This document shows, piece after piece, positions 4,019-39,719 of a stretch of 64,000 nt of DNA. Origin of the DNA: Raillietiella orientalis (taxonomy: Eukaryota); the NCBI GenBank assembly GCA_036172245.1, contig JAYWIR010000019.1, forward strand, positions 3,162,001-3,226,000. The letters are read 5' to 3'. Below the pieces are notes generated by a model. That model was not told the DNA's origin. It made no database searches and saw nothing but the letters and a program-made list of their open reading frames with translations. How positions within the stretch are numbered: the first letter of the stretch is position 1; every line of letters starts with the position of its first letter. The position numbers and the translations under genes were made by a program.

Positions 4019-7000
4019 ACACCACATGAAATCAGATCGTGTCCACGATAATGGGAAGGAATTCGTACCTCCGGCCACATTCACGAAATCGTCTCCGTTG
4101 GCTCGATAGACTTCAATATAGCGCGAGCCAATATGGTGCTTGTGTCTTTTTAATGCCATCTCTCTGTGTTCCTGGTCCACGAAGCGAACGAGAGCTTCTC
4201 CATTTCTCCTTCCTTGAGGACTCAGACATAATGCAACTCCTCCTCTGAAAGAAGACACATGTTTGTTTGTTTTTTTCCTCCAACATACTCTCCACAGGCT
4301 CGTGAGATGTTTATAGAATTATTCCGCCTCGTGTACATCGGTTAGAATCGTACACAGCCGTAGCACGCGGATCACAGCGGAGAGTGATGAGAAAGCTGAC
4401 GCGCAGTGCGCGGGGAGACGGACAGATGTAGAGCAGACCAAAGACCCTCAAACCACAAAGTAGTTCTACGTCCAGCGCTCTCCTCATGATGGAAGAAAAG
4501 AAAGCAACGCGATCGAAGTACCGATATTCATTAGGGAACAAGAAAAGTCCCGCAGGGCAGAATTATCCGACACAGCTCGCCATGGAAAAGAAATTCTTTT
4601 TTTTTTGGGGGGGGGGAGGCGTTTTAAGCTTAGCGACGGTAGCTAGAGCGGTAATCTTTCATCTTCATAGGAACATAGGTTAAAGCAGGTTACATTTTTA
4701 GGGCATCACGTTTAAGAGTTTATGCACAAAGTTGGTGATGAACTAAAAATTTTTTCTCAGAGCTGCATCCAGGAATTAAGAACAGTGTGTAATGACGGAA
4801 GTGAATTACGAATATCTGTTGAAGGAGGAGGATGCTCTGGTTTCCGGCACCGATTTGAACTTGCCGATGCAATTGAGGAAAACGATCAGTAAGGCAACGT
4901 GTGCCTGCTCTCAGATCAATTCCTGAAAGGGTGTTTCAAAAAGACCAAATAAGGGTTGTCGTTGATCCCAGATCACCGTAGCTTCTCACAAGGGTTCAAC
5001 ATGGACTATCACGAGAAACTGCTTAAATCACCCTTCCGTATAGTAAATGATCCTCAAGCTGAACAGGAATGCTCCTGCGGAACTTCTTTTGCTACAAAAT
5101 TTCCTTCCGATCAGTAACCATAGAAATAAATAGAATTTTTTGACATTCGGCTTTTTTTCCAACTTTGTACCTGGGATTGTTCGTTGACCTCAGTTCTGGC
5201 TTCCAGCTGTTCATTCATGCTGGCCAAATGATCTGACAGGGTTGCCAGTTGGCTGCTGTAGTTGTCGGTGGTGCTAAGTTCTTCTTGCGATTTTAACAAG
5301 GCTTGCTCTGAATCTTCTCGCAAGCCATCTTTGCTTTGCTGCAGCAATGCACTGTAATGCTTTTGGCATCCTGCATGGAACGCTACCACTCTGCTATATC
5401 CATCAGTTGCCTTTTCTCAGTATTCCCTGGGATCCGCTGATTGAAACAGTTTTCCATTTGTTCATCTCCCCTTATGCGTACACAAATGTGCACTGAGCTC
5501 CCGCGTTTCTGTTTTCAGGAGCATCACTCTCAGGCCTTCAGTTGCTGCTGCGTGTTCGATGGTGCATGGTTTGAGCCTTGGACACGTTCTGAACCGGAAA
5601 TCTTCTGTACGCTGAAACGCGTCGCTCTTGCAATTTCACTCGACTCGGATGCTCAAGCAAAGTCACGTTTTAGAAAGCATTCTTCCTGCGATGCTGTTCC
5701 GTTTCGGACGATCCTATCCAAGGTGCGAAAGAATTCTTTTGCTACACTTTCTCCCCTAAAGAGAACTCTTTGGATCATGAGAGGCAAAAACGCTAAACAA
5801 AGAAGAAGAAGAAAAAAAAACGCCCCAAGTAAAGACTGCAGAACCGAACTGAAGACCGCATCACCCGATTTCAGGCCTTTTCGATATTGCATGTTCCGTG
5901 AAGAACTCAAAGAAAGGAAGGAACGAGATCGCAAAGACAAGGCTCCGGAGATCCTCAGAACGGAGGAGGGGAGAGATTTCCTGGTCCCTCAGGAAACCGT
6001 CACACAGGAACGCCGAATTGTGCGAAGGGAGGCTTCGAACGCAGCAGACCTCTCAAAGTCAAAACTCTGGAGACGTGACGCACACCTGACTTGAATTGCA
6101 TCAACAGCATGCGCTGGTCTTGGAGGTGCACAAAAAGAGTTGTCGATCCTTTCGGAAAAGGGAATGCCGTCTTGAGGGGAAGCGGCGCTGTGATCATCAG
6201 CTGCGACACTGAACACGTGCACGGAGCTTCGGAGACTTTTCCCCATGCAGTCCGATGTTCACCTGCCTCTGGTAAAAACGACCTTCCGCGCGTCCTGAAT
6301 CCCTCACTTCCTTGACTCGAAAAAGTGACTCGAGGGTCTTAAAAAAGCTGTACTCAAGTGGTTTCTCGGAGTCAATTGCGAATTCCGGGTCGCAGGGTGT
6401 TTCTGGAAAACTGTGGAATCATTCGAGTAAATCCGATAGGACCGTCCAACGCGGAATACGCGGTGCCGAGGTACTGCAATCATTCTGGCACTCCGAAAAG
6501 GCTATCGAGCAAAACAAAAAAAAAAATTCCGTGCCTGAGACGGAGGTCCGTTTTTTTGAGACCGGGCGGACGTGGCACTCAAAAAGAGTCGGCAGAGCCG
6601 TGTGGCACAAATGATCGTGCAGGACGCGTGATCCAGAGCGGTTCACGTTTCCCTTTATTTCAATCGGAACAGTTCCGTTCGCGATCTGCCACGGATTCCT
6701 CCCGTAATGCCTTTCTGACGACGGACCTAACGGTCCCTCTTGCGAACGCCGCCGGAGCCGCGTGCTGGGCGGGGAAGTTCCTGAGCCCCGGGAGGCCACT
6801 CGCGCGACCGATGCGGGCAGGACGCAACGTCGCCCCGGTTCGGGAACTTTTGGGTTTCGGATCTTCCCGCCGCCGGCGGAGTCGCCGCACTCTTTGAGCT
6901 CGAACTCCGGCCGCTTGCATCCTTCCTTCCGTCGCCGCCCACCTCCTTCCATCTTGCGAGCAGCCGCGCGAAGAGCTGGACATGCTGGACCCAGGAAACG

Positions 7001-10000: not shown

Positions 10001-13000
10001 AGGGTGTGTCTCGCAGGGTTTTTTTTTTTTTTTTTTCGAAGAAAAATCTCCGGATGCTTTTCCATGAAGCAAAGATCGGCGCGGTGAGCTTGCGAAAAGG
10101 GACCTTTCCCAGCCAGCACAGAGAAACACCGGCAGGAGAGCGCGGATCTTGTGTGGAGCTACGTGAAAGATTTTTGCCGATAGATGTGCAGTTACCAAAA
10201 GAAAAAGAAAGAAGGAAAAAGGAAAACAGTTATAGCAGAACGGTACGCGAACAGTTATAACATACCGGAGGAGCGATTATGAGTTCTCTTCCAGCAGAAA
10301 GAGAGAATTGTGAAATTCGTAAAATGGTGATAATAGGGAACTCCAGTCCGTTCCGTGGAGAGCAGGCGTTCCCGAAGTCGCTCGCAGAACACCGGGCTGC
10401 AGAGCCGCACCGCTCGCGATTCCTCCTGACTGCAGCTTGAAGAAGCCCACCGACAAATTCCTCGCTTCCTCTGTCCCTGATTGCGGATTCTCTCTCTATG
10501 CATTACGAAAAGCTTCGGAATTCGACGCCGGATGAGGTTGTATCTTTTGGATACCTTTCATCTCGTGCTCGTGATAGATGAGCGGCAAACAGTATCATGA
10601 GAAGACACGCTGAGCCACACGATGGGGAGAGAGACCTTCGTTGCCTTGCTACAACTCGGATGCCTGCGGATTTGCAGCGAAGTTCTCTTGACGAGAAAAA
10701 ATGAGAAATGGGAGAAGCGTCGCGCTCCTTCTCTTGTACGATGGAAGCCCTTTCGTTGAGGTAGCTGAAGCCCAAGAGACGGGCGGTACTGCAGCCGTAA
10801 GCTTTACTTGAAAACGGGAGATGACGGAGCCGTGATTCTGCGATCTGCGCCTCTTCGGTGGCTCCCCGTTTTGATTCTGCTGGCCCGACCAGAAGGTACA
10901 AGGGTTTGGGAACATAGCGAGGGAATGCCTCGAAAGCTGATGATTCAGCAGGTAGGGTCCACGCCGAGGGCATTTGCGACCTGAGCTACTTATGCGGGGT
11001 GAAACCCGAGGAGAATATGGTCGGCGCGCCTACAGATCTGCTTTAGCGCGCAGAACTGTTGCCGTGAAAGCAGAACAACTTCGCCTGCTCGCTTCTTTTC
11101 TTCCCTCTCTCGTGGAACGGGCAGCTCGTTGTTACCCTGAGAGGTGACGTGTCGCCCATCCAGATCATTTCAGTGATTCTTTTAGAATGGGTGCACTCGC
11201 TTCAGCTTGCAGGCAGGAAGCTCCTGCTCGTCGCACGTGCCGCTGGACAGAGAGTTTGCAGATTCTTCGGAAGAATTCATGAATTTCCAACTCTTTTCCC
11301 AGGAGGGGGGATACCAGCAAAGATGATCGAAGAGCGAAGCGTTCTGGAGCACCTGACACAACGTAAACGATTGCATCGTGGCTTTCCCGGGTGCAGGCAT
11401 CACAATCATCACAAGGAGTTGAAGAGGAAGATGGTGGTCAAGAAAGACTTCCATTAGGAATCCTTCAAAGTTCACCGACCATTTGTTTTGGGTTTTCAAG
11501 CTTCCAGTTGCCTTCCCTTCTGAGAATCGCCAACTAGAAAACCCGCCTTCGCAAATTTTCTTGCCTTCCTCGTTCCCTTCCGTGCTTCTTCCTGCCACCA
11601 ACACGAGGCTCATGCGGCACTCGTGGCATATCCCCGGCCGCTTACCAACAGGCGTGCAGTTCCAAGCACATCCTCCACCCTCTACCTCGACATCTTCCTC
11701 CGAGTTCTTCTTGCTTTCCAGGCCACGGCTTTCAGTTTCATTCCATGAGAGAAAGGGAGTGCCAGTCCTCTACATAGGAAGACAAAGGCTGGTGGGATTC
11801 CTTTTCCTGATCTTCCGAGAACTGCAAGGAACTACCAACCGGACATCTGAAGAGTCCGAAAGGAGTACTATTCACACACCTGGATGGCTCTTCTGCTTCG
11901 CGCGGCAACCGCCCTCTGGAGGAAGGGAATCCTACAGCGCCTTTTTTTCCCCGCTCCCATCCGCGAAATTTGCTTGGGGGGGCGGGAGGGGGGCAAGGAA
12001 CTCTTTGTCCACCGCGGCCACCATTTCCCTTTCTTACATCGGGCTCGAAGGCACGAACTGGAAACCGGGTGCGCGTGCAATTCCGAGGTGGTTTCAACTC
12101 GCAACGAAAGGGTAGATGGTGGCGTGGTACAATCCCTTAGTACCCGCGAACGTCTGCACGGCTCTAAGGCTTTCCCAAATTGAAAAAAAAAAAAAAAAAA
12201 AAATGATTCGCCCCTATGCGTTCGAGTGCCCTAGTAGTTCTCACCCGCTGAAAACTCTTTTCGGTTTGGAAAACTTGATGCCCCACAGACAGAGCTGCAG
12301 ATGACGTGTGCGCGTGTGCGCGTGCGCGCGCGCTTGGGAACTGCACGCGCTCCAAAGGTCGAGGGGGTCGCGACCGGGAACCTCGACAATTTGCATACAT
12401 TTCCTCCTCCCCTCCCCTCCCCCCCCCACACACACACAAGCGCCGTGCAGGATGCCGTCAGACACCACACTTCCAACAACAAATGCTGCAACGTCAGGAT
12501 GTTGCTGGAGCACCGACTTTTCCTTCCCACATCCTCCAGCCTCGTGAGCCTTTCACGTCAGCAAAAACAACCACACGCTTTCTCTTGCCACGAAATACAC
12601 CAAACGTATATCTTACTTTGCGATGTTCAGTCCTCTGAAGAACCTGGCAATATCTTGATCTGAAGACTGCCAAGGAAGACCACGTGTCCGAACGACGCAG
12701 CTATTATCGACTTCTTCGTACTTAGAACTGCAAAACAGTGACACATGGATCAGTCGTGGATACTCGCAATGAAAAGAACACATGACAAACATCCTCACCA
12801 ACATATATATATATATACATACACACACACACACACACACACTTCTGGCAAGCACAGGAAAGGAATGCTTTCAGCTTTGGTCGTTTCCTATCCCCTATTA
12901 TTACATGTACAGAGCATTCTGTTTTGGCATAATTCTACTTCACGCGGCTCAGTTATACAATTCTTACTTTACTCTCAAGGGCATCGCACAGGAAATTCAA

Positions 13001-16000
13001 GCAAACCGAATAAAAAATTTCCGAAATCAGGCGAATTTCCCACTCACCATATTCCAGGCTCGAATTTCACGCTTATTGTCTGTAAGTTCTGAAAGGCGTG
13101 TCCTGGGGAGAGAGAGAAAAGTCGAGAGGTAATTACAACAAATTAACAGATATGTGAATCATTATCATCATCATCGTCGTCGTCGTCGTGATCATCATCA
13201 TCGTCGTCGTTATCTGTTCCTCTGGGTGCTAATAGCCACAGGAGGCGTCGGACCGCCAGCACTTCGTTATCACCACAGATACGCTCGAGGAAACGGGTTA
13301 ATGCAGGCGAAATTGGTAACCGTGCTCGCTGGATGGCTTTCCTTGAGCCACGCAGTCGGAGCCAAGCCTGCCTCGAACCTTACACTGAACATTCTACGTT
13401 GGAAAAACGACACCCACAGGCACACTTGATTGGCGTCATGAACAATCCGTGCACACTCTCCGGATTCCCCGAGACGTGATTTTCGTTTTACCCCTTACTT
13501 TCTGAACTCTCCCCACGCTATCCTTTTCTTTTCGCTAGAAGAAATGGATGAAACAGTCACTTACTGCGCAGATGGTACAGTAAATCCTTCGTTCTTTTTT
13601 TCTTCTTCTTTTTTTTTTTCTTCAGCTGCTAAGCATTTCCGAAAATGAATGTATTGAAAGGCAGGTATTCTCCAGCATGAGCATCGGCATGCATTCCACT
13701 CATGCTGGGAGAGAGAGAGAGAGAGACCCCCCCCCCCCCCCAAAAAAAAAAAAACGGAACGAAACCCACTGTTTACTATTCGTCAGGTCGGGTTACGGCA
13801 TTGAATAGACAGAAACGCTACGTGGGCGCCTCGGTTCGCCATGGAAACCACGAAGGCAGCAAAACCAGTTCGGCGAAGCCACTGGGGATGCTGCGGGTGC
13901 ATGGGGGGGGTGCACGCGTGATCGCTCCGTGTTGGACCACCCCCGAAAGAAGGGGTGTGCCTGCTGGCCGTGGAAGAACCCCTTGCAAGATGGCTGCGCC
14001 GACAAAATGGTGCCCTACGCCACCGTGTTCAGTTTATCTTGCTGGGATGTGTGAGGATATGGTTTTCGTTACTCGATACGAAAGAAGGTGCACCCACTTT
14101 GCTCGCTTTCCGAGGAGGAGGAGGAGGACGAAAAACTGCTGGTGTGAATGCTTTTCTCATGGAAAAACACAGACCATCGATACGAATTGCGGAAGGCTCC
14201 TGAATGAGAGATTTCACGCTTCGTCCGCGCTTGAGTTTCGTGAGACGGACGGATTTTTCTTTTTTTTTCTTTTTCCCTTTCGTCAACACACGTGACCTTC
14301 TCTTCGCGCGCACGCAAAAAAGACACAGATAAGCGATTCAGCCTCAAGCCCGAACTCTGCAAGCACACGTGTAAAAATAACTGATAACTGACTGTGCTCG
14401 GGAAATAACAACAAGCAATATCTTAGTTCTAATTTAGTTTAGAGAGATGATCTGAATCAGGGAGGCTTTCCTCTCCCGTTGACAGTTCCGGGTGGTTGAG
14501 AGCTTGGAGATGTTTCTTTTGGGAGTGGGTGGGTGGGGGGGGAAAGAACTGACTAATTACACTCTCCTGTAATACCGAACGGAACAAAATCTATAAATAT
14601 CCAATCAATCAAGATTAAATAGTATGGACTCTGCGTACTTTTCCAGTCAAATATTACCTTACTGATAGCACCAAAGCGATAGTGATCGATGCGATCGAAA
14701 GTTATGCAAATGTCTAATTTATATGGCAAGTGCTTTCCGTATGCTACATTTAAAATTAGGTTTGGAGTCGAGCCTCTTTCAAAGTCAGGCAGCCGAGCAA
14801 CAAACTCACTTTAAAGGTTGCTCCCTGAAGGATGATCTTGACAACAACTAGGAGGAGAGGAGAAAATCTTCTCGTCCTTCCGCCACAGCGAACGGCGGTA
14901 CGGAAGCAACAGGTTCTCTTTCCCATCAGGCGCTAGTGCTATTTATTTGCAAAGTTGACAAAGATCCGAAAAAAAAAAAAAAAAAAGAAAGAAGGAAAGA
15001 AAGAGACCTTCGCGTGGCAGCCAACGGCACTCCACGCACGGCTCATTTTGCCGACACTCCTGCTAGCGCGAATGCAAATGTGCACGTTAGGTGCTTCTCT
15101 TGCACCTGCTCCGACACCAGGACATCTACGGAAGCAAAAGAAAACCAAGGCTCCTCCTGGCGGACCTATCTGCCCGTTCGGGATGCTGGGAATCGAGAAG
15201 AGCGGGGTCAGTCCTTCGGAATGAGGCAAGTTCGCTCGCCCTGCTACCACGTGATTCCTTGGTTGCACCGGAGTCTCACCCGGTCTGTAGAAACCGCGTT
15301 CCCTTTCGCCTTTTCGACAAACTTCTCGGCTGAAGGACCCCTCGCTCGATGTTCGCAGAAGCCGCCGCCGCTTCCACGGTGATCCCATTAATTAAAGCAG
15401 AAAGCCTCCCCGGCCTCCCCAGACCATACGATACGACGACCAAACCAGCCTCTGCCGACCGTACGGTACGAAGCGGATAGGCACACGTGAAGCACGTCCC
15501 CCACTTACGCGCAGGTCTTTCACACGTCCCTGGATTTCGCGATTTTGCAGCGGTCTCGTTAAAGCAAACGCAAAAACGGAACAGATCGGTTTCACGAGCA
15601 GAGCACACGACTGCGGCGATGCGAATCGAGGAAGACTTGACTTACCAGAAGACCCTGTTCGCGCGAACGGCAGCGACCGCAGTTACGGACAGTTTTCTGA
15701 AAGAAGAGTCCTTCTTTGTGGGTTACAAGGTTCTCTGTAGAAATCTGGCTCTATAAGGTTGAATTTTCGTAAGCAAGAGCATCCATTGCTTGTGTTTCAG
15801 GCAAGGGCCCCACTGGAAAGTCTTGGGAGGTTCTCAGACGAATTTATTGGATGCTTTCAGAAACCCATAAAAGAAAGGTACAGATCACCTTCCCTGAATA
15901 GGCTAGAAGACCACGTCCAAGGAAAGGGCAGCGTTCTATCTAACTACGCACAGAGCTGAAGCAAGGAGGCACAAAGATTAAACATCCGGAAAGACAGACA

Positions 16001-17038
16001 TCAAAAGTTTCAGATGTTCATCCAAAAGTCTCGAAGAAGAGGGATAAGCAGCTGAAACGTGATGATCAAACCTCGGAAGAAGAGTCTGGGAAAAAACCAA
16101 CACGAAATGGACTGAGAATGGCAAAAGTGGGCCCGGCGAAAGAATAACGGGACTCAGCAAAAAGATTCAGTTTTTACCCATCACAACATGGATCGTGGAT
16201 CCCTTGTCGTTTTTCAGGCTCGGTTTGTTTTTCAGAGGACTTATCGTGCCTCTTGCAGCCATGCCTTTTGAAATTACAGTCCTCATCCTTTCTGAAAAAA
16301 CTCAAAAACCTTTCCGTTTCCAAGAAGTCATTAATTTTTATAAGGCTACTCTGTTATCAGTTAGTTGTGGCAGTGAAAGGCCGCCATACTGGGATCAAAA
16401 CGTGCAACTCGCATAAGGACCTGCCCTACGATTTTCATCCAGAATTCTCATCACTAAGAATATTCTCTACTATCCGCTACCAAAATGTATAAAAAGATGG
16501 GGGAGGGAGGTAGGGGGCGATGTCTATATCGCGTCCCAAAGTGCTCCTCAAAGGAATCTTCCGATGATTCGTGTTTCCCGTTCCATTTCGGGGAAGGCTC
16601 CCTCTAAACCCGGGAAGAATGCGACAAAATTGGGTTCCAGGTTTCGTCACAATACCTCTTCATAATTACAGACCGTTGCGAATGCTCGAGCGCCTTCTCG
16701 GCGGAACACCAAAGGACACCCCTGCTTCGATCAAGGCATGTGTTCTGCAAGCCACTTACGGGCATCGAACTGGTGTGCAGCAAACACGACCACGCTCTTG
16801 CCCCCAGTTCAAACACCACCGAGATTTTCGGAAGGTTGTGCTCTCTCCAAGGAAAACGAGGAAGATATCACAAAGAGCACCTGGAGGTAGGCGCGCAGAA
16901 AAGCAGAGTCGAGCAGTGGGGTACCCTACTCCGCGCTTGAAGACTGGTAGTTCCAGAAACGTAGGCTATTAAACTGATGAAGCTTGGAGATTTATCATTG
17001 CAACGCTTGATACTATATATATATATACATGTGTGTGT

Positions 17039-17070
<32 letters not shown>

Positions 17071-20000
17071 CTGTGTGTGTGTAATTTGTCAGTGTAACAA
17101 TTTAAATTACTCACCTTCTTGAAGAAAGCGTTGCAGCAACAGGGTCATCGCCGCCACCTCTTTCGCCGCTAAATCTGGGACGTCATCGACGTGTACTGAT
17201 AAATCTGAAGTTTAGGCTAAGGCGCACTTTGTCCAATGGCATCGTCATGGAAATTTTACAAACTGATGCTTGTTGATTGGAAACGCATCCCGACCGCGTG
17301 CACTTCGGAGTGAGTCCACTGCGCATTTTCGAACGGTGGTGGACGACGCCTTCACGACGGAGGCCGCAGTGTCGGATGTGCACGTACAAAGCATCTATGT
17401 GTGCACTCGTAGAATTATTAAATCGCGAATACATCCAGCACGTTGTTATTCCGAGTTATGCATACGTATATGCGTACATCATTCGTGCAGACACACACAT
17501 AAACAAAGTGGAAAAAAATGAATACGTAGCCTATACTTATGTAATTACTTTCCCTGTAAATAGCAGAGGTACATAACGAATAGCAAAAGTGCATCCTCCG
17601 TTGCTCACTTAAGATCATGACCGGAGCCTCTTCGCCTAGGGAAGCCCCGAGCTGATTACACAGCGCGTGACATGTCATGGTTGCCAACTTTTAGATGTTG
17701 CTCAGCTAGTTGCCATGAAATGCCACGAAATGTATAAAAGTGCGGATTCATAATGCGGCCACAAGTGGCTTCCGGTGGCTGGCTTGTCGAGGGAAACACA
17801 GTTTCATTTGTTAATTGATGGGTCTGGAATGTTCGAGAGAATTCGTCAAAAAATTAATTAAACGAAGGTTACGAACGCCTCGGACTTGCGCCGCGGCGCG
17901 TAGAAACCGAAACTCGATCCGAATCCAGCAAAGAGAAAGTGAAGAAGGGGATTCCCTTGATCGGAAAATCCAGATTTGACTGCTAACTTGGCTGCACGGG
18001 TTCCTCTCCTGCCTCTCCCGAAATCCGACAGTCCCGGAAGAGGCAGCGCGGGGGTATATAAAACAGCCGATGTCCTCCACGTGCCGCCTGCCCTGCGCTC
18101 TTCCGGAAAGCGCGAAAAAGACGCGCGCAAAGTGCATCGCCACCGGAGCTTTCCGTGCTGCGTTCCTCCTGGAGCTGCAGCCAGGATCAACTGGAACATT
18201 CCGGGCTCTCCCTGCTTTTTTTTTTTTTGCAGTTCTCTCTTTTCCCCCATCCATCCCCCTTCCTTCAAGCGCTCAGTGTCACAGACCTCTCGCAGCGGTA
18301 TAGGCGGAATGCCGCGAGAGGGCGCACCTGCTGACCTGCTGACTTCGAAACCTCCGGTCCCCAGCTATCTGCTGCGCTGCCACTGGACTTTTCGAAAGCT
18401 CCACGCGGACAGGATCCGCGGATCTCTTCGGATTGTGGTCAGTACAACCCCGACCACTGCATGCTGCAGCAGGCAGCCACAGGTAGCGGAGTTCCTTCCC
18501 TACGGTGTCTTCAGTTCTACCGTCCGCGCTCGCCACCCTGGGAAGGTTCAGCCAGCGGTTCCAGGAGCGAGAGAGACGGGTCTTTGTCGGGAGGGGGGGA
18601 GGGATCGAACTGTGAGTTCGTCGAGATCGAGGGAAGAGAGCCTGAAGCAGAAATCCGGGATACGTCCCGCGGAATTCCAGACGCCATCCTCAATTGCTGA
18701 GAGCGAGAGGAAAAAAAAAAAACACCCCTAAGAGACGGAAGACGCAAATGGCTTTCCGCTCTCGGAAACAATCGGCTTCAGCTCACCTGGAACGCGCGCA
18801 CACCCTGCAGCGGCATTCGCTCCCTTCTCGCCCCCTTTTCGCCAGCATCCACTCCCCTACCTTTCGGGGAAGGGGGGGCGGGGAGGCAATTCGTGGAACC
18901 GGAGGCGCTAGCAGATTCGAGTCATTAAAGGCATCGAGGACCAAACACCACCACCACCACCATCGCTGCATGCTAGCGATTTTTCCATAATCACTCGCAT
19001 TCTATGGGAACCACGGCGACCCTGCCGACGGCGCAGGTCCACCACGTGGATGACGCCATCCTGGGTGAAGAGTCCACGCGAGACAACAGCATCGTGGCAC
19101 GCTGTGTTCGCCGACTGCTTTGCGGGGATTGTGCTTCGTGCCTCCCCATCTGAGACGCTTCGCAACGTTCAACGCGTGGGGACTCGGAGCCGCGAGGCAC
19201 GCAGGGAAGGTGCAGAGGCCAGGAAGAGGCTGCGGCAGAGCGGGTCCTCGCTGCTGAGGCCTCTGAGCCGTAGTGAGGAGAGAGGAGGGGGAGAAGAGTG
19301 GAACCGCCCACCAGGAGCATACGAAAGAGGGGGCTGGAAGGAGGAAGACCGCGTTCTTCCTGGCAGAGCGCGAGCGCCGCGGTGGCCTCCGCCAGAAGTT
19401 CCTCGGGATGTCTCGGCTAAGCGAGTCCATTGCCGTTTATCTGCCCAGGGAGGAGGCGAACGGTGGAGACCTCTCTGCCCAGGGAAAAGAACATTTCCAA
19501 GCGCACATCCTTTCTCTCCACTCCCCACGCACGCTCGCGCGCGTGCGTGCGTGGGAAGCATGGCTGCGCAGAGAATGGCTGTGCTGCCCACTCTCAGCAC
19601 AGCCATTCTCTGCTGGAACCCGCGGCTAAAGAAGCCCCCCGAATTCGCAGAAGAGGGTGTTCGTTTTCCGAACACCCTCTTCTGCACCCCTATCGTCCGC
19701 TACGCCCATGAACACTCCAGATGGTGCCTGTGGGCTGCACAGGACCGTGCAGAAGCGGCCGCCGGAGCCATCACTTTCTCCATTTGCCTCCGCGTCCACA
19801 CTTACTCCGACTTCTCCGACCGCTGTCCAAGGAACGACTCCGTCGCCGGGAAGGGCGGAAAGGAGGTGGCAGAAAAAGAAATTTTTAAGCCCAGGATAAA
19901 AACAAAAACGAGAGAGAGAAAAAAATAAACACTTCCAGTATGGAAACGGAAGGAAGGAAGGTGATGGGATCCGTACATCCAGCTCATCCTGAGAAGAGGC

Positions 20001-23000
20001 AAACCACATCCGCGCTAACGAAAGATGATGATGTTGCAATGACCGAATTGAGGTAAGGAAGATAGTCGTAGGTTATCCTCCGATGCTCAATGCACTCAGT
20101 GGCCTCCCAGTTCACAGAGGTCGCTTAAGAACCAGTGGCTCTCTAACTTCGGATCGCAATGGATGTTTCCAAGACAACGCAGCACGAAGGCTGCCCACAC
20201 CACCCAGAAGACTCAAGCAAAAAGACACGTGCAGGCGCGCATAGGATTCCGTCTTTGCGCGCGTTTTCTTCCTTCAGATAGGGAGACGGTGGAAACCACT
20301 GACATACGAACTGGAAAGCACTATGGAAGAGAAGAATGTGCTGCAGATCTCATCTCCTCTTCCAGAGATATCTCTGCTTTGATGAACTTTCAAAGAATAG
20401 TTTGTTTGATAGCCCTTGCATCTTCTTTTTTCCTTCTTTGATCTGCCGATGCTGCCTCCGGTTAGCAAAGGCCGTGCAGCTGTTACTGGGATTTAGGAAT
20501 CCTGGAGCACATGGCCGGAGAGTCATTCACTCCCACTTGGGATTCCTACTGATCTTGGGAATTCTCCTGTACAATGTTTGCGGGTCAAACAGGATACTCT
20601 GCGTGCCAACATTAAACAAAACACCGTCCTGCTGCCTCTGGCAGCAGCATAAAAGAGTTCATCGGCTGGAAGAAAAGATGGAATGGACTCCAACAAACGG
20701 CGGAGGAGAAGAGAGGCAAAAAAAGAAAAATGCATTCACGAATGAGAAATCGTGGTCCAAGTTCCTACGAGAGCTACACACTGAACTGGGATAGACAGCG
20801 GGAGTTTCAACCCTAAAAACCCACAAACATGGGACGTTCTCACAGAGCCGGGAAAAATCGGATTCCAGCAGAAAAACTTCCCCCTGTTTCTCCAGAATCC
20901 AAATCGGTTGCTGAGTGAAAATGCTCGTCGATGATTCGATTCTTCTAAAAACAACCGAACAAACCAGAGGATAAGCGCATCCAAACTAGAGGACACTTTT
21001 GCTGTATTGCATGGGTCAGTCTTGATCAACGCAAAGAAGAAGCAGGAACAGCACACGTGTTTTTCAGACCCTCCTCAGGAGCTCAAGAGCGTTTTCAGGA
21101 CTCAATCCACTCTAGTTTGGTGCCAGAAGCAAAATCATCTTTGGAATCAGCATCGTAGAGAAATTTCAGCTTCTTGTCATCCACGCTCGAAATGATATTA
21201 CGCCTTCTTTCCTAATCACGCCGGAGTACTGCCGAACGACCCCGGAATGGATTGACTAGGACACTCGACAATCCCATAGAGCCAGGGCAGATCATTCAGG
21301 ATCGCCGAGCTAGTTCCTTCGCTAGTTCATCGCAGGATGGCTAAGAACGAATCGAAGGGGGCTGGGAATCACACTTTCATCGTTTGGAGCCGATAAAGTG
21401 TCAAATCTCACTACCGTGAGCATCGCCACGGTAACCAACGAAATCGCCCTACATCAGAAAGGTAGCGACCACCAAGAATCCGTACGATGGAAGGGGGAAG
21501 AGGAAGGGGAAACCTGGCAATACTGTCTGCTACGCTTGGGTTTTCCCCATCCTTTGGCATTTCTACAGTTGGAAAAGATACGATCATCGAACGCACCTGC
21601 ATTCTGAAAGAATTCCATTAGTGAATGGCGAACGGTCTCGTGCTTTAAATCAGATTGCAGAGATCCACTTGTTCACCCACTTTTGGAAATCTTTTGGAGT
21701 CGAAAACTTTCTGGGAACAAAGAAACGTGAAGCAAGCAACAAGTCGACCTCAAAATAAGTGGGGTTTGCGTTCTTGATGCAATTATGATGAGACAGCAGC
21801 TAACTCCAAAGGTAATTTGGATTTCGCTAAAAGCTACAATCAATTTAGGTAATTCCTGCTGTTGCAATTTCATCTGGACGAGTAAATTAGCAATAACTGC
21901 TATCGAGGACTAACGAACGGAAGTTGAGAATTTCGTCCAATTAATTGGGGAAACAAGCAACTCTGCCATCCAGCATGTGTGTACTTCGGATTATACTGCC
22001 GTCAGGGAGTCAACTTCATAGTGGCAGCGAGGTTAACCTTGGAAGATCACTGTCCTCAGCGCATCCAATGAAAGCACAAACACAAAAGCCTAAAGAATGC
22101 CAATTGCGGATCTTGAAAATAAGCGATGCTTCGCCTACAGCTAGGAAACAAACATTTTTTATGTTTCAGGAAATCATGCAGAGTTGAAAATTGCATCCTA
22201 TGCCAGCAGAACTTGGAGGAACTCTGCGTCACTTGGTCTCGGAAGCTCCTCTTCCGTCTCGAGAGGTGCCCACCTCAAACCTCAGCGCGATCGCTGGATG
22301 AAGAACGGCGTCTGCTGCAGATCTCTTCGCACGGAACCACCCAGGACGCCATCAAGCTTTGCTGCTTCCTTTAAAGCTTCCCATTTGCGTACCTTGAACT
22401 GCGCAAATTTCTCATCTGATACCATCAAAAATAGTCATCAACGCTTCACCATGCAGCGTGGTAATTCTTCATCAACCGTGAATTAAATGTACTCATATTA
22501 CACGAAACGGAACCTTTGCATCTTGAGTGTTCAGAATATTGATGAATGTCTAATCTATTATTACTTGGTGAGGAGGAATCGACGGATGGCAAGAACGTAC
22601 GTTTTGCCCAACTTCTTCAAAAATTTATTCACAGCTTTTCGTGTTTGCATTCCTGGATGGCGCGCGCACACCAACAAGTGTGCACCTTAAATATTACGCA
22701 CACTGCAAAGGCGATCGCCGGGTCGATCCGAAATCCGTTGCATCGGCATTGGATTTGTGTGTTTCAAATCGCACCAACGCTTCTAAAGTTTCCGCGAAGA
22801 ATCGCTGCTAAGACACGGCATGTAGCCGTATGTATATTGCGCCTGGCATGGAACCTGTAGAGTAATAACATCCATGGGAGAGAACTGGAGATCACGCCGC
22901 ATCCACAGGGAAAGGCATGCCTCGGAGATTTGCAGCCAATGACAGCACAGCTACTCAGTCTACCTCCGGAGCAACCGTGTTCCGTGCACGCAGGCAGTAG

Positions 23001-26000
23001 TGTGCACACAAACAAACAGATGCGGCTGCACGCTGCGAGTGTTTTCTTCTTATACATCCCGCTCGGCCATTCATGCCGTCGGTAGGTGCTTTTGGGTAAG
23101 AAAACACCAGCAAAGTGCTTCCACATGCGGAGGGAAGAAGTTCCACGGGCAGCAATAACGGAACGAGGCAGATGGAACACGGAATGAAGTCGCAGACTCT
23201 AGGAGGAAGAGGGCCTTGCGGCTCTTCAGCGTGCCGTCGCTTGGCAGTCCGTCATGCCGACAGCCACGAGGAGACGAGGTCGTTTCGCGATGCACTCAGC
23301 CAACGGCGCCGTTCCCGCCGCCGAAATCTCGAGGATCCCCCCTCATTCGCCATCCGCCCCACAACAACTCCCTCCGCTCGACTCTCTCGTCCTTACGGCC
23401 GACAACGGACTTATTCCGTTGCCGTGGTAGCAGTTAGCCTGGGCACGGCCATCGGCGGGCGTTCTTCGATCTCCTTTGGCAAACTCCGAAGTACTTCCGC
23501 TCCGTAGGACTCAGACCAGAGAGGGCCTCGTTCAGCCAACTCCCCGGGTCCTACGGAAGGTAGATTCTTCCTCCCTTCAACCAGGAAGGGGCGGTGGGGC
23601 AATCTTCGGAGCACACGTCCGGGGCAGCCAATGCGCAACTCTCCTTCAAGACAGCTCTTGGAGGCCGTGCTTCCCGCTGCCAGCCCTGCCGGCTTCCCTT
23701 CCCCCGGAAAGGCTGAGAGAGCGCACCGCCCTAATGCAGCAGTCGCGATCGGGACTGACCCGAATCGGACTCCAGGACATGCTAGCAGCTCTGCCCCAGC
23801 GCTGCTAGCATTCTTCGATGGCCTCTTGAGAAAGCTAAAACCTCTGAGCTGCTCCGTGAACAGCGGGTTTTAACGGAGAGAAACGCGGGTTCCTCGAGGG
23901 TGCCACTAGACTCGGAGGAATCGCACCTCTTCGCAATTCGCCGCTCCGTGAAGAAACCGATCAAGAGGATCTTATGCGCCAAAGCAGCGCGACTGGAAGG
24001 CGACAGAGTAGTAGCCTGCTCGGAAAGGATGCGCGCCCAGAAGCTCGGTTCAGCGCCTGGAGGGACAAAGAGTCAGCGCGCGAAGACCAAGCAACGACGA
24101 AGTAGACCTTTCGAAGAGGGGAGGCGGAGGAAGTGACGTGAGCTCACGTCGGATACCTTCTTCCGTCTGCACCGAGACACCAAGAAGCTTCGGAGCTAGA
24201 GTGCGCGCGCGAGGAAGACCGGCGGAAGAATTCCCACTTTGGGGATGCTGGAAGAAGTCGAAGGCGGAACACCTGCCAAGAAACACCGGAGGCTCACTCA
24301 CACCTACCGAGTCCACTGGAGAACCGACAGATATTCACACGTCCACGCGCGCTCGCCAGCTCCACCATTCAATCCGAGGTCCGGAATTCGCGCACATCCA
24401 GGAGTCCAGCTTCCGGGAGTGGACCGGAGGAAACCGACCGCGGAAATTGTCGCGAGGCAAATCTAAGATTTTGCAGGGAGGGTGCGCGCGCGCAGGAGAG
24501 AGAGTGGTGTGTGTGTGTGTGTGGCAAACGGGGGTCCGAATGGACAGCGGGGATGCGACGGCACGGAGGGATCCCTGCGCTCTCGTGCGGCAATGAGGAA
24601 AGCAGGAAAGCGACGCGCAGGGCTGGTGACGCCGGAGGAAGGAGGAGGAGGAGCCGGGAAGAAGCCCCACCAGCTGTGTCACCTCACTCGCGAAAGATGC
24701 GAACCCGCGGAAGTAACGTCGCTGCGGCCTGGTCCACCGGCTTCCGTCGCATTGGGGATCTTCTCATCTCTAATTACTCTGTCCGTGGGGAAAACTTTGG
24801 AGGGAAGGAGAGAGAGAGAGAGAGAGAGAAAAAAATGCGGCATGCCGCCGCGTTCCCGTTTGCCGCTCCCGAACGTGCGTGGATGCACACGGATGCAGGT
24901 GAGGAAGGGTGGGTACAAACTCGCACCCGCTTTGACCTCGCTTTGACCGGGAAAATTTCAACGCGAAAGTCTCAACGCGTTGGACTTTCAATCGCCTCTC
25001 CATCCCTGCTTTTTTTTTTTTCTTTTTTTTTCTCGCCCGAGCGGCAAGGTGCGGATGCTGAAAGACTTGCATGGCAGTGCGAGGAACGGGTGGGAAAGGG
25101 ACGCGCGCCATTAAAAGGCTGCGTCATGACGTCACGGCCGCGCACGCAGCACAAGGTGAGCTCCATCTTTAGCAGGAATTCGGGCGTTCTGCACCGGCCG
25201 AGTTTCCGCTTTACAATCTTTGTGCTAAGAGAGCCAGCGTTGCCATCAGAGTGGTCGTCATGTGCTGAGAGCAACCGTCCCCAGTGCTCTTCCTCGAGGG
25301 CCGCCCTCGTCATCGAGGATGGTAGAAAAGAACGTAACCGTAGATTCATCCACCGAAACCGCATAAGGCCGACAGTACAATCCCGTCGGAAAGCACAAAA
25401 GGCGCGCATTCGAGAAGCGACAAGCACTCTCTACTTTTACCTTGACTCTCCAAGTGGTTGCTAAGTGAACCTCTGAAAGGATACGTTCCGCAATTGCTGA
25501 GACGCTTTGGAGATCTTTGGAAATCTGGTACGCTCTCCGGCATTCTTCCTTAATGTCATAAAAGCTATTATAATAATCGGGAAGATCGATGTTCTTGTTG
25601 CATGCTTCAGGATGGAGACACTGGCGCAGATGCAGCTGACCGTCGGTCACCAAACGGAACTGCTGTTCGTCGTTGACGCACTCTCCCAGAGAGTCTTTCA
25701 GGAATTTATCCAACTGAAACAAAAATGGAAATTCTGTGAAGAAGAAGAGGAATCGACGGCGAAGTGATTCCACCCAGAGTATTCACACATACTGTTGTCT
25801 GAACTGGGAGGTCATCTTCCGTCTGGCACGCAAACAAAAGCAATGAAATGCGTTCCTTGGACAAGAGATTAGTACAGAATAAAAAAAAAAAAAAAATACA
25901 TAGAATCCAAACGTATCACATGAATGAGAAAAGCAATCCAACTTGGATTCGTACTATTTGCAAAAGAGTAGGTGTACACCTAATAGATTTGAGAACAAGT

Positions 26001-29000
26001 GTGCTGACGCACGTGCAAGTTCGCTTTCCAAAGAGAACATGGGCGTCGACATCAGTGACATCTTGCGAGGATGCGAGTAACTGCCGTGTTTACGATTCCT
26101 CTTTGGAAAACGAACCAATCAGCAGCATCCGGAAAAACAAATCTCATGGAATTCACGGAGCACCCATTCATCTACGAGAATTCTCCCAAGCACTGATTTC
26201 AGCTGTGATATCACCGCGTATTTCCATGATTATTGGAACGCCTGAGAGCTGCTCGTTTGATTTCGTTACAGGCAACGCCCGCACACCGGTGTGATAACCT
26301 TTGTGGAAACACTGAAAATGATGAAAAAAGAATCTTCATCTGAGAAATATTCCCCTAGATTGCTGCAAACGGCTCCTCAGTTGTCTTAGAAAACTACAAG
26401 ATCACTGGACATCACAGCAACAATCAGCGTGCAGAGGCTGCGATCTCCTTCTCCAGCCTTCGCAACAAGTTTTGCCCCATCCTACGCATCTCCATCTGTG
26501 AACCAAGACCTTCGTTTCATCTCATGGGAATGTTCAAAGGTGTAGAGCTTCGAATCTCTACTTTGGAAGATTTCCTCCATTCCGCCATTCCGCTTTAGCA
26601 AGCAAATTTCTTTTTTTTTTTTTCTTCTTGTTCTTCCTGATAGATTTGCAGAAGCCAAGAAAACTCCCTTTTTTTCTGGTTTTCCTTCACAGGTGCGTTC
26701 CAATGTACGTTGGGGGCATTCAGAGTTAAGGATGCAGCAGAACTGGAGACAGCTGCTTCCATCATCCGCTACCACGTTCTTCACTGTTGCAAAAGTCTAT
26801 TTACGCCACAGCAATTATGCTTTTTCTTCTAGTCGAAGATTGCAAGTTCCTTTACAAAATCAAGTTCGTTAAGCATCCGTCTGTCCGTTCCACTGCATCG
26901 TCCTTATTTTCCTCTCGCACCTTCGCCGGCGATGTACTTCGATGGATGCGGAGGAGAGGTGTTGGAGGAACGAAACCCACCATCTGTTCCGTCCCAGTCC
27001 TGGATCCAGAACGAGTTCGCCAGGTATTCCCGTGCAGGAGCGGTTTTTCGCGTGCAAGAGCACCTTGCAAGAGGGATCTGGTACGCGCCCGAAAAGAGCG
27101 GGGTTCGGTTCCTCGGCTGCCACGCAAGCTGCCGGCGAGCAACGCGCTGGACGCTTCCTGGAATATGGTGCTTTCCTCAGGCGGGAAAGCGCGAACCTAC
27201 TTGGGAGCTTTCGCTTCGGAAACGAAGGCTTCCCGGCTTTCTAGAGGAACGCCCTTCACGCGACCACACTCCGCTTCCACGAGATGATCCTCCCTCCACG
27301 TCCACTGCTTCTTTTGTTTCTGCACAGTCGCGGGGGGTTTGGCTTTTCTCTTGGCGGAAAGTCCTTCTTCGGCGGTGCTGCCTCGGCCTGGGGAAAATTC
27401 CAGGAGACGAATTTCACGTTCCTCTTGATCGTGGAAGAAAATGAACCCATAGTGACGACAAGAAGGAAATCGAGGAAGGGGAGGGGGGGAGAAGAAGAAG
27501 AAAAAACACATCCATTAATTTTCCGTGTGTGTTTCGTGATTGATGGCGGAAGGCCAACACGAATGTGCACTCTTTTAGAGTGCACCTGTTGATGGGAGTT
27601 GCAACCCGAAACTCTTCTTCAAGGCAAGGAGCATCGACGGCCTAACCCCAGGCCTTGAGCCGGTCTCAGGAGGGAGCCCTGCAGACAATCAAAGAGGCAA
27701 ACAGGAGTCACGGCTGGAACATTTTCCGCCTTCCCAGAATCCCGGCCCGAAAGCATCCTTCAGCAAGCGATGAAGGAATGCCGCTTTCCGGCTCCAAACG
27801 TCAACCGATGAGCGTGAAGCTTCTGGGCACGCGGCCCGTCTGCCCTTCGAGAGCGACCGGTTGACCACGGAAGCTCCTAGGAAGGCTGGCTGCGTTCCTC
27901 CGCAAAAGACGGAACTCCGAAAGGGACCGGGTTTCAGTGGCTCGCGCCGTTCCGGAAACGAGGTGTCTGCAGCGCCAGTGCAACACACCTCTGGATGTAG
28001 GGGAGGGGAAGATTCGAGGATGCGGTCATCCTTCTCTCCCCCTTGGAAGGTTACCCCTTTCCTCATCTCCCCCGGAGAGACCACCAGAGGGTACTAGTCC
28101 TTTGTTTCCTCCCGGAAGGGAACCCGGAAAGGATCCGCTCCTGGAATTTCTTCTCCGGAGGGAACCCTCAAGGGAACCGCTCTCTGTTGGTGCTCCTCTG
28201 AAAAGAGTCTCGGAGGGACGCTCCCTAAGGGAGCAGCGCTCTTCTTCTCACTCTGGAGAGGTGTCAACCAGCTCCATGGTTCTCTCGATACGACTTTATG
28301 TGCGCAACTGGAGAGAAATACCGAAGGGAACCTACTCCTTCATTTTGATTTCTGGAATGACCCTGGAGGGTCAACTTCCAACCCCGGCCACTCATCGAGG
28401 GCATGGGGTTTCCGGCTTCCACCAGTGCCGCACCCGAGTACAGGCCAACCAGCGTCATCTTGCGAGGGGAACTCGAATTTACGACGCACCCAGTCCTCGG
28501 GCGCCTACCCTTCCCCGGGTGAGCTTCGAACACGCGGCGCTCGGTACCATGTGGCGCGGAGACCGCAGCAACTTGACCACTCCAACGCGGACAATTCGTC
28601 GAGGAGTCCATTGCTGAGCCGCTGCACACGGAGGAAGGATTAAAGCGACGGGGCGTCCCACGCGTTCCATCTCAGCCCATTCGTTTTTTTGTTTTTTTCC
28701 TTTTACCTGCTGCATGACTCGCTTCAGCTCTTCCGCTTGCCGGACCTCTTCTTCGGAAATCCTGTAATTAAGGCAGACTTCTTCGGAAAAAACTTCTTCG
28801 TTTACATCTGCAGATCGGGTTTTCACGATGTAAGATTTCAGAAGAGGTTCCTGAAACACAGAAAAGTGGCTGCTCGAAACGTGGCCTCAATTTTCCCGGT
28901 CCCCAGGATACACCTCGCGTTCGCCCCGGATGGGAACACGCACCCAGCTCTCATCCTTTCTCCTCTTCGTGGCACTGCGGATGCGAGTGAGCGCAACGAG

Positions 29001-38000: not shown

Positions 38001-39719
38001 GGGAAAATGACCAGAAAACTATGAGCGTAAACCCTCCCCCTCCCCCAAAAAAAGACAAAAAAAAAAAAAAGTATTCATGACGAAAGCGAACATCTTCACA
38101 TTTCCGAATCGTAGCACTTATTAAATGAAGAACGGCACACGAAATGCGCGTCAAAGAAAAAAAAAAAAAAAACCACGCGCCAAAAATCAACTAAGAAAAA
38201 GGAGGGAAAAAAAAGAAAAAAAGCCGTGCACGCTTGGAAAAAAAAAAAAAAAGAAAGAAAAGTTCGATTCGTGACAGTTCCTTCTCTTGGATTCGGTTCC
38301 TCAAGCAGCACCACTTGTGTGCAGACACGCGAGAGTGTGACGTGTCAACTGTTATGCACTTGCAGCGGAAACGTGCAGGCGTGCCGCGAAATGGTTGTTC
38401 TGCCGTGAGCGTCAGCTGTGAAAACAACAACAATGACGGCAACAACAACAGCAACAGCGGCGTACGACGCGCGCTGCCACCGAAGAGATGGAAAAAGATT
38501 CGAGAGTTTCTTGAACCTAACTCGATGGACCAAATCCCGCAGCGTAACCTAGATATTTTCTTACAAACTTTCGAATAGACACCGACTGGATGCGGAGAGG
38601 GGGGAAAAGAGTTGCCACACGTTCTCGTGATAGGCGTACCCAGATTTATCACGGAGTCAGCTGATAAAGCTGAGAAAACTAGTGTTGCTGGAACATCGCA
38701 TTAAAGTGCACTCAAGGACACTTGTTACACTACGGCAAGCGATTCGCTCCTCTCTGCTACTTTCTTCCTTTTTTCTTTTTCTCTCTCCGTTCTTTTTATT
38801 TATTTATTTATATTTTTCGAACCTATCCACGTCTTTCTTTCTTTTTTCTTCCTTTCTTTCTATCTTTTTTTTTTTTTTTTTTCGAGGAATTTCACTCAGA
38901 TGAGCTTTCTGTTCTTTTTTTTTTTTTTTCCTTCTTTCTTTCTTTCCTTCTTTCTCTCTCCCTCTCCCTCCCTCTCTCTCTCTCTCTCTCTTTTTTCAGG
39001 AATCATCGAACTGAGGTGGAGCAAACCTTGACTTTACGTTTCAGATACGAAGCCTTACGATTTCGAAAACGCTCTACACACACACACATACCTTTATACG
39101 CCCTTGGGCTGTGACGCTCGCCTCGATTAAATTCGGCTTGCATCCGTCGGAACGAAAACGCTGCCACGGACGGGCTCGTGTGGATTTTGAAAGCAACGAA
39201 AGGAAAAAAAAAAAAAACCGTCGGAACGGCCTGCACCTCCGGGAGACCGCGAACCGCGCCTCGTTCCCGTGGGATATAGCACGAGACCAGTTGCGGTAAG
39301 GAAGGAGCGAGCGAACACTTGGTTTTGTGCAAGGAGGGCGAGTTTCGCGCGAGCAAGGAAAGATCATCATCGCCGGCGGCGGAGGCAACACGGCGATGAC
39401 GATGACGATGACACCGCCGCAGCGGCACGACGCGCGGTCACACGTGGGAGTCCCTTGCGAACGCGCGTGCAATCATTCCGGTGTTTTCTCCGAAATGACT
39501 CCGAAGCAGTCATTAGGGAGAGCTCCCGCAGCTGCGCCACGACACTCTTATCTTTCCTTTTTCTTTCTTACTCACGTTGCACGGCTTGGAGACCTCAACA
39601 ATGGAGCAGCATATCTTTATGATCTCTTCTTCGTCGGAACCCAAAAGAGGACCGTTCTGTCCAGAAGACACGACATGGAAAACCATCAAGTATTTCAGCT
39701 CCGGCATGTTTGTATACAT
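689..39719 (-). CDS. ESRP1/2 (fus, sym-2): Epithelial splicing regulatory protein (ESRP1/2, fusilli, SYM-2 family), spliced: join of 39719-39576, 28850-28707, 25713-25485, 17204-17115, 13102-13048, 12727-12617, 4244-4069, 3583-3489, 2950-2735, 2136-1915, 1561-689; 784 aa
   Basis: Eleven exons with GT-AG boundaries and matching phases sum to 2355 nt in one open frame. ESRP hallmark motifs appear in order: [106 protein letters not shown]. Confidence 0.95.
1915..2136 (-). CDS. ESRP1/2: ESRP coding exon 10, linker and start of RRM3 ([44 protein letters not shown]...VHMVFNTQ)
   Basis: Acceptor CATTTTAG|, donor CAG|GTAAAA, 222 nt, phase 0-0. The conserved VLNR follows AEVQQ. Confidence 0.92.
2735..2950 (-). 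CDS. ESRP1/2: ESRP coding exon 9, RRM2 (IEFFEQG...[12 protein letters not shown]...[15 protein letters not shown])
   Basis: Acceptor TTTGCATAG|, donor CAG|GTACGA, 216 nt, phase 0-0. Confidence 0.93.
3489..3583 (-). CDS. ESRP1/2: ESRP coding exon 8, start of RRM2 ([32 protein letters not shown])
   Basis: Acceptor TTTTCCCCTTAG|, donor GTG|GTACGT, 95 nt, phase 1-0. Confidence 0.93.
3983..4012. repeat. (CA)n microsatellite
   Basis: Directly visible. Confidence 0.95.
4069..4244 (-). CDS. ESRP1/2: ESRP coding exon 7, RRM1 ([21 protein letters not shown]...[18 protein letters not shown])
   Basis: Acceptor TCTTCTTTCAG|, donor GAG|GTACGA, 176 nt, phase 2-1. Confidence 0.95.
4621..5117 (+). pseudogene. 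ISCA2: Unprocessed pseudogene of iron-sulfur cluster assembly protein ISCA2 (HesB/IscA family), antisense within ESRP intron 6
   Basis: Translates to [58 protein letters not shown]..(frameshift)..[34 protein letters not shown]. The GGCSG and CSCG.SF motifs are diagnostic. Has a 41-nt intron at 4889-4929, a probable 51-nt intron at 4651-4701, an in-frame TAG at 4979-4981 and a net +1 frameshift near 4988-5000. Confidence 0.88.
5111..5470 (-). pseudogene. PPP1R21: 3'-terminal fragment of PPP1R21 (KLRAQ1/CCDC128), decayed
   Basis: Translates to [62 protein letters not shown], which resembles the PPP1R21 C-terminal TTKRSYEDQL..SDHL.SMNE.L domain. A 2-nt frameshift lies near 5396, and no upstream part of the gene was seen. 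Confidence 0.8.
9758..9801. repeat. (GTGC)n(GT)n compound microsatellite
   Basis: Directly visible. Confidence 0.9.
12617..12727 (-). CDS. ESRP1/2: ESRP coding exon 6, start of RRM1 ([37 protein letters not shown])
   Basis: Acceptor TTTTGCAG|, donor AA|GTAAGA, 111 nt, phase 2-2. Confidence 0.95.
12803..12842. repeat. (AT)n(AC)n compound microsatellite
   Basis: Directly visible. Confidence 0.9.
13048..13102 (-). CDS. ESRP1/2: ESRP coding exon 5 ([19 protein letters not shown]), not in the ORF track
   Basis: 55 nt, phase 1-2, strong acceptor TTTTCTCTCTCTCCCCAG|, donor ATG|GTGAGT. Resembles the ESRP H.F....V..KFE.G.C motif. Confidence 0.9.
13158..13210. repeat. (ATC)n/(GTC)n compound trinucleotide repeat
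   Basis: Directly visible. Confidence 0.9.
17014..17082. repeat. (TA)n(TG)n compound microsatellite
   Basis: Directly visible, about 30 nt downstream of the exon 4 donor. Confidence 0.95.
17115..17204 (-). CDS. ESRP1/2: ESRP coding exon 4 ([30 protein letters not shown]), not in the ORF track
   Basis: 90 nt, phase 1-1, acceptor CTTCAG|, donor AAG|GTGAGT. Fits the ESRP segment V..M..I...I preceding the GH.F motif. Confidence 0.85.
17205..25484 (-). other. U12-type (minor spliceosome) GT-AG intron, 8280 nt
   Basis: 5' end is GTATCCTTTC, the U12 consensus RTATCCTTT. 3' end is GCGCCTTAGCCTAAACTTCAG, with a CCTTAGC branch-like motif at 17222-17216 and no polypyrimidine tract. It joins exons 3 and 4 in frame. 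Confidence 0.82.
25485..25713 (-). CDS. ESRP1/2: ESRP coding exon 3 (LDKFLKD...[38 protein letters not shown]...SAIAE)
   Basis: Acceptor TTGTTTCAG|, conserved TDGQLH.RQ.LHPEA motif, ends in phase 1 at the U12-type donor GTATCCTTT. Confidence 0.93.
26090..26430 (+). mobile_element. Possible decayed LINE reverse-transcriptase N-terminal fragment
   Basis: [16 protein letters not shown] resembles the I..LK..KSPG.DG.P motif, and ENY lies about 80 codons downstream, where NYRPISL is expected. Confidence 0.28.
28350..28595 (-). mobile_element. Possible tRNA-derived SINE (degenerate Pol III A/B boxes)
   Basis: Minus-strand TGGAGTGGTCAAG (28584-28572) and GTTCGAAGCTC (28531-28521) at long-variable-arm tRNA spacing. 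Related heads occur at 36381-36420 and 27587-27655. No intact cloverleaf. Confidence 0.35.
28707..28850 (-). CDS. ESRP1/2: ESRP coding exon 2 ([48 protein letters not shown])
   Basis: Acceptor TGTTTCAG|, donor CAG|GTAAAA, 144 nt, phase 0-0. Fits the expected DnaQ-like segment. Confidence 0.85.
30131..30793. mobile_element. Foldback/MITE-like element with long imperfect terminal inverted repeats
   Basis: Perfect inverted matches at 30138-30152/30768-30782 (15 bp) and 30199-30223/30662-30686 (25 bp), with internal AAACCG/AACGAA-rich iterations at 30270-30350. No coding capacity and no clear target-site duplication. Confidence 0.55.
38755..38999. repeat. About 245-nt polypyrimidine low-complexity tract
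   Basis: Almost purely C/T on the plus strand. Confidence 0.9.
39576..39719 (-). CDS. ESRP1/2: ESRP coding exon 1 ([48 protein letters not shown])
   Basis: Resembles the ESRP N-terminus (YLVV..G..LGSDE.E). ATG at 39719 (alternative ATG at 39707), in-frame upstream TGA at 39732-39734, donor AAC|GTGAGT, phase 0. Confidence 0.88.

Follow-up and report, generated by a model that had tools for sequence, protein, structure and literature searches.

The minus strand of the window, the whole 64,000-nt stretch of DNA analysed here, carries an ESRP/fusilli orthologue whose third intron is predicted to be a conserved U12-type intron. Inside this intron, 44 nt 3' of the U12-type donor, lies a candidate U2-type donor, AAG|GTAAAA (25435..25443, minus strand, GT at 25440-25439). 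The first-pass annotation had read the two sites as competitors, a productive minor donor against a major donor leading to nonsense-mediated decay, and had suggested that the choice between them could tie ESRP levels to the balance of the minor and major spliceosomes. Our analysis favours a simpler explanation. With a probability of about three in four, the 25440 donor is an unselected cryptic U2 look-alike within a conserved U12 intron rather than a regulatory switch.

When four ESRP proteins were searched against the window by tblastn, their minus-strand matches were collinear between 39698 and 1346, and identity within the RRM exons was 70-81%. This collinear similarity, extending across the N-terminal domain and the RRMs, places the gene in the ESRP/fusilli family. 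Searching with the peptide of exon 3 yielded 9 proteins out of 21 candidates; four of them bear the names epithelial splicing regulatory protein 1 or fusilli and belong to two crustaceans, a beetle, and a crinoid (43-68% identity). Exons 1, 2, and 3, each submitted singly, matched no Pfam family.

All exons lie on the minus strand. The coding part of exon 1 (39576..39707; ATG at 39707, 44 codons, donor AAC|GTGAGT), exon 2 (28707..28850; donor CAG|GTAAAA at 28706), and exon 10 (1915..2136; donor CAG|GTAAAA at 1914) were located by tblastn. Exon 3 (25485..25713; 229 nt, or 76 codons plus 1 base) is supported by tblastn, by its frame, and by an RNA contig over 25485-25646. Exon 4 (17115..17204) has 90 nt and the donor AAG|GTGAGT. 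Exon 5 (13048..13102) is a 55-nt micro-exon that tblastn missed and a frame-aware scan recovered; read with its split codons, it gives 19 residues that correspond to DGHRF..PE....LEPGI in the relatives, and it is required for an open frame between exons 4 and 6. The first RRM starts in exon 6 (12617..12727; donor AAA|GTAAGA), and an RNA contig passes from 12617 into 4244. The settled model continues with exon 7 (4069..4244), exon 8 (3489..3583), exon 9 (2736..2950), and exon 11, which runs from about 1555 and continues off the window. Once the 55-nt exon at 13102-13048 is included, the earlier exon numbering is correct. Exons 1-8 joined yield 344 codons free of stops. Long microsatellite tracts of (CA)n/(TG)n and (TA)n immediately flank exon 4 on its 3' side (17040-17100, minus strand) and exon 6 on its 5' side (12790-12850, minus strand).

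Intron 3 (17205..25484, minus strand) is a GT-AG intron of 8280 nt. U12-type 5' splice sites follow the consensus RTATCCTT(T), and the U12 branch site, TCCTTRAY, lies about 10-20 nt from the 3' splice site. The productive donor of intron 3 (25476..25484, minus strand, G at 25484) adjoins the exon end CGGAAC and reads AAC|GTATCCTTT, in which GTATCCTTT is a perfect match to the U12 donor consensus RTATCCTTT. At the other end of the intron, the branch-site-like motif CCTTAGC (17216..17222, minus strand) stands 11 nt before exon 4; it agrees with 6 of the 8 positions of the U12 branch consensus, and 13 nt separate its A at 17218 from the end of the intron, a spacing within the U12 range. The 3' splice site AG (17205..17206, minus strand) was read from the sequence. 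Across the whole window, RTATCCTT occurs three times, which is about the chance expectation. The other two matches, at 54971 (minus strand) and 41044 (plus strand), were rejected as U12 donors and are most likely chance, with no coding frame around the former and A/T runs at the latter. An Rfam search over the whole window gave 0 matches, and no snRNA genes were found within it.

U12-type introns typically have a weak polypyrimidine tract or none. The acceptor of exon 4 has 13 pyrimidines in 20 positions, a longest pyrimidine run of 4, and the fewest T (6) among the acceptors of the gene; the other acceptors have 9-18 pyrimidines in 20. We dropped a polypyrimidine argument against U2 use of this acceptor because 13/20 falls inside the 9-18 range of the gene. 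Pyrimidine content neither favours nor excludes U2 use here and is not decisive.

The donor of intron 3 was compared with eight read-through ORFs from assemblies (P0001-P0004 and P0010-P0013) and with 54 loci from a scan of metagenome contigs. All eight ORFs have C-I-L at the aligned column, corresponding to T|GTATCCT in identical codon and phase; such ORFs display in-frame intron translation only, and out-of-frame GTs are invisible in them. In two of them (P0004 and P0012), an exon-2-like ORF continues straight into exon 3, and intron 2 is seemingly absent. Among the metagenome loci, GTATCCTT was present at the homologous place and phase in 12 and GTATCTT in 16, which gives a U12 donor in 28 of 54. 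The 3' end of the intron was reached for five of the 28 (L014, L016, L019, L027, and L032), and there TCCTTAAC, TCCTTGAC, CCCTTAAC, or GCCTTAAC lies 16-17 nt upstream of the exon-4 homologue. Because U12 branch motifs precede the exon-4 homologues in these five loci, the donors of the GTATCTT variant are also assigned to the U12 type. The form with T at +6, GTATCTTT, is the U12 donor in L014, L016-L019, L024-L032, L037, and L038. In the five of these loci that were read to the 3' end, the branch motif is of the consensus TCCTTAAC type and its spacing to the exon is 16-17 nt, compared with 11 nt in the window.

These results bear out the earlier view that the upstream donor is a genuine, productive U12 donor, and it is deeply conserved (8/8 ORFs, 28/54 loci, branch sites in 5). 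Sequence signals and conservation together mark intron 3 as an ancient GT-AG intron of the U12 type and a predicted substrate of the minor spliceosome. ESRP1 of mammals counts as a minor-intron gene (PMC6239176, PMC8850803, PMC7312986), and the minor intron of ESRP is now seen as old and widely retained in invertebrate relatives.

The remaining 26 of the 54 loci were classified by eye. Five (L002, L008, L012, L023, and L033) have no intron, and the frame continues. GTATGT in L013 and GTACGT in L021 occupy exactly the same base as the U12 donor, A|GTAATT occurs at the homologous place in 16 loci (L035 and L039-L053), and L034 and L036 carry GTATCCCTT there. One further locus (L054) was rejected, being unrelated beyond the search motif. 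We also left out of the U12 count a ATATCCTT that lies 27 nt downstream in L051, which is not at the homologous place. In the same locus, at about 1696, ATATCCTTT stands 27 nt 3' of the U2-type GTAATT donor, the reverse of the order in the window; it is absent from L046, L052, and L053. ESRP intron 3 has undergone in-place U12-to-U2 conversion in several lineages (GTATGT, GTACGT, GTAATT) and outright loss in 5 loci, and these loci form a compact series of conversion and intron loss within one gene.

Janice et al. have proposed a 'safe pathway' by which U12 introns turn into U2 introns (PMC3564746), and repeated conversion or loss of intron 3 among relatives would fit a 25440 donor that marks an intermediate stage of such a change. 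However, the observed conversions took place at the same base, and the 25440 donor cannot replace the U12 donor because the +44 shift breaks the frame. The frame leaves this reading close to refuted already, and we regard it as extremely improbable.

The details on which the first-pass annotation built its proposal were each confirmed in the sequence: the position of AAG|GTAAAA 44 nt inside intron 3, the 44-nt extension of exon 3, and the TAG at 17171-17169. The stretch between the two donors (25441..25484, minus strand) is intronic in the productive mRNA and would encode 15 residues if retained. Joining the 25440 donor to the exon 4 acceptor at 17204 shifts the frame, and 11 residues are followed by that TAG (17169..17171, minus strand). 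The computed join ends prematurely at 194 aa, as had been claimed for the shared acceptor. With the exon 5 acceptor, an early stop gives 192 aa, and plain retention of intron 3 leads to a stop at 243 aa. This frame-breaking effect is not special to the site, as two of three random offsets would act likewise.

As the first-pass annotation stated, the real donors of exon 2 (28706) and exon 10 (1914) likewise begin their introns with GTAAAA. To score donors we used a crude 7-point match of our own to MAG|GTRAGT and counted sites with at least 5/7. On this scale, the 25440 donor reaches 5/7, as do the donors of exons 2 and 10, while the real U2 donors of the gene range from 4 to 7. The minus strand of the window holds 104 sites with at least 5/7 (1.6/kb), and the chance of finding one within 44 nt is about 7%. 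Intron 3 contains 11 of these sites including the 25440 donor, and 2 of them score higher. The 8-mer AGGTAAAA is rarer, with 3 occurrences on the minus strand of the window (2 real donors and the 25440 site) and 0 on the plus strand. Of AGGTAA, the minus strand has 8 copies (the 25440 site, 2 real donors, and 5 more) and the plus strand has 7; for this strict class, which was chosen after the site had been seen, a chance match within 44 nt has a probability of about 0.4%. Folding of the RNA of 25400-25520 revealed no structure beyond that of shuffled sequences (z = +0.71; 157 of 200 shuffles fold as well), and on this z we dropped the idea that RNA structure masks or exposes the donor.

The rarity of AGGTAAAA, the 0.4% figure for AGGTAA, an exon 4 acceptor that is not clearly poorer in pyrimidines than the gene's others, and the precedents of ESRP1 and CENATAC speak against a cryptic site. 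The rival reading is an evolved U12/U2 twintron, in which minor splicing would produce productive ESRP mRNA, major splicing at 25440 would produce a substrate of nonsense-mediated decay, and dosage would follow the minor/major balance (compare SRSF10 and CENATAC). In its favour, the 25440 donor equals the real U2 donors of the gene, its use yields a premature stop, human ESRP1 is among the 18 twintrons listed in PMC3564746, and the U12 and U2 donors of CENATAC have a common 3' site. In the published cases described in PMC3564746 and PMC8329584, however, both donors are conserved.

To measure conservation of a second donor, the 28 U12-bearing loci and the window were reduced to 23 groups (90% identity over the first 150 intron bases). 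In these 23 non-redundant sequences, the first 100 intron bases contain 4 U2-like sites of at least 5/7 in 2218 nt (1.8/kb), and the sequence further into the intron contains 40 in 20616 nt (1.9/kb). U2-like donors are therefore not enriched beside the U12 donor. The offsets of the 4 near sites all differ, being +17 in L032, +20 in L001, +23 in L031, and +44 in the window, and the site of L001 is absent from its close relatives L003-L010. Across the 22 non-redundant relatives, all of them distant, the U12 donor is kept and the second donor is conserved neither in position nor statistically. Relatives without the U12 type also speak against a twintron, since they changed the donor in place (L013, L021, and the 16 GTAATT loci) or lost the intron (5 loci), and none shows a shifted donor.

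Conservation of the second donor, which the first-pass annotation had proposed to check in related genomes, was thus found in no relative reached, and with neither a conserved second donor nor U2-like enrichment the regulatory switch is unsupported. We consider an evolved twintron unlikely, at roughly one chance in nine. All relatives compared share at most 67% identity over exon 3 in two protein searches, and a young lineage-specific function would therefore escape the comparison. The 25440 donor might in that case be a working, lineage-specific U2 competitor, such that an invertebrate ESRP would have independently evolved a twintron like that of human ESRP1; this, too, we hold to be improbable. 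If it were true, independent ESRP twintrons would suggest recurrent selection coupling ESRP dosage to minor-spliceosome activity. Were use of the 25440 donor regulated, the coupling of an epithelial splicing regulator to the minor spliceosome would extend to invertebrates, and the human ESRP1 twintron would be one instance of a recurrent solution.

A U2-like site could also act without being spliced. The 25440 site offers six contiguous base pairs to U1 (-2 to +4, our own reading from U1 complementarity) and, as an unspliced U1-binding site, might help to define exon 3 or to bring the splicing machinery to the U12 donor of the very long, 8.3-kb intron. Cooperative exon-definition contacts between the two spliceosomes have been reviewed (PMC8329584). 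The same review sees no evidence of a regulatory role for such contacts, and the second donor is not conserved in relatives. We judge such a role very unlikely.

RNA was available from one metatranscriptome run (X1), kept as contigs, which contains 0.13 of 31 sampled words and includes a near-identical relative. Seven X1 contigs were placed in 12500-28900. None of them joins over intron 3, and at their low depth they are silent on either donor; the twintron thus gains no supporting junction from them. The exon 3 bases 25485-25646 are spanned by a contig of 162 nt (6 differences, depth 2.2), which stops at the last base of the exon with no loose end; the gap over 25441-25484 carries no weight at such depth. 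Another contig runs to 12617 and then into sequence matching 4215-4244 with one mismatch, which is the junction of exons 6 and 7. Given this junction and the exon 3 contig, the gene is expressed and spliced in the X1 sample. The start of the junction contig falls no more than one base from the acceptor of exon 6 (12728), and the exon 3 contig ends at the donor. Contig ends at exon borders could stem from a mixture of spliced and unspliced forms, or simply from low depth.

For the cryptic look-alike, which we prefer, the following course of events can be envisaged. AAG|GTAAAA probably arose within this lineage and is not under selection. U1 binding would be expected at 25440, because in quality the site equals the U2 donors that the gene itself uses. 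As long as the U12 donor is recognised, the 25440 donor should be silent or used at noise level. Were it joined to the acceptor of exon 4 or exon 5, the product would presumably be lost to nonsense-mediated decay, because either join ends the frame early, after 194 or 192 aa. Weak minor splicing might raise its use, as it does for cryptic U2 sites in vertebrates, and this would be a by-product and not an evolved circuit. For annotation and RNA-seq pipelines, the site is best handled as a cryptic site that they should heed.

The concept of competition between U12 and U2 splice sites is already published for the ESRP family and for other genes. The first-pass annotation had called such a circuit undescribed for the family. 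In part the claim does not stand, because Janice, Jakalski and Makalowski (2013) include ESRP1 among 18 human U12/U2 twintrons (PMC3564746, Table 1), its U12 variant having 742 aa and its U2 variant 206 aa. No invertebrate case of the arrangement was found in excerpts of the literature on ESRP1/fusilli/RBM35A and minor introns. The family precedent for U12/U2 competition is the listing of human ESRP1 as a twintron with a truncated U2 variant. The human gene resembles the one described here in family, in having a U12 intron with an alternative U2 splice, and in the truncated product (206 aa, against 194 aa predicted here); judging by the similar truncation length, the human twintron intron may be homologous to intron 3. 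The two differ in that annotated transcripts and reported conservation of twintron arrangements in vertebrates (PMC3564746) stand behind the human case, whereas ours is a prediction from sequence without a conserved second donor.

In CENATAC (CCDC84), competing U12 and U2 5' splice sites share one 3' splice site (PMC8329584). As in the arrangement proposed for the window, two nearby donors of differing type use one acceptor, and one outcome carries a premature stop. Unlike in the window, it is the minor pathway of CENATAC that gives the stop, both of its donors are reported to be highly conserved, and the switch has been seen in patient RNA. SRSF10, itself a splicing regulator, can be spliced by the U12 or the U2 route, and this choice links its level to the activity of the minor spliceosome (Meinke et al. 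2020, PMC7244321; PMC8329584); the first-pass annotation's reference to minor/major competition in this gene is backed by PMC7244321. The likeness lies in a splicing-regulator gene with a U12/U2 splice choice, as was proposed here for ESRP. In SRSF10, however, the U2 intron lies within an AT-AC U12 intron, there is an autoregulatory exon, and the acceptors are separate (PMC8329584), whereas the U12 intron of the window is of the GT-AG kind, with one look-alike donor and no known regulatory element.

When minor splicing fails, the usual outcome is intron retention together with activation of nearby cryptic U2 sites (PMC8329584). The 25440 site is a pseudo-site of this kind near a U12 donor, which may become active if minor splicing is compromised. 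Cryptic sites of this class are defined by activation seen in RNA, whereas the one described here is predicted from its letters. With this difference in mind, the 25440 site most likely belongs among the cryptic U2-type sites beside minor introns.
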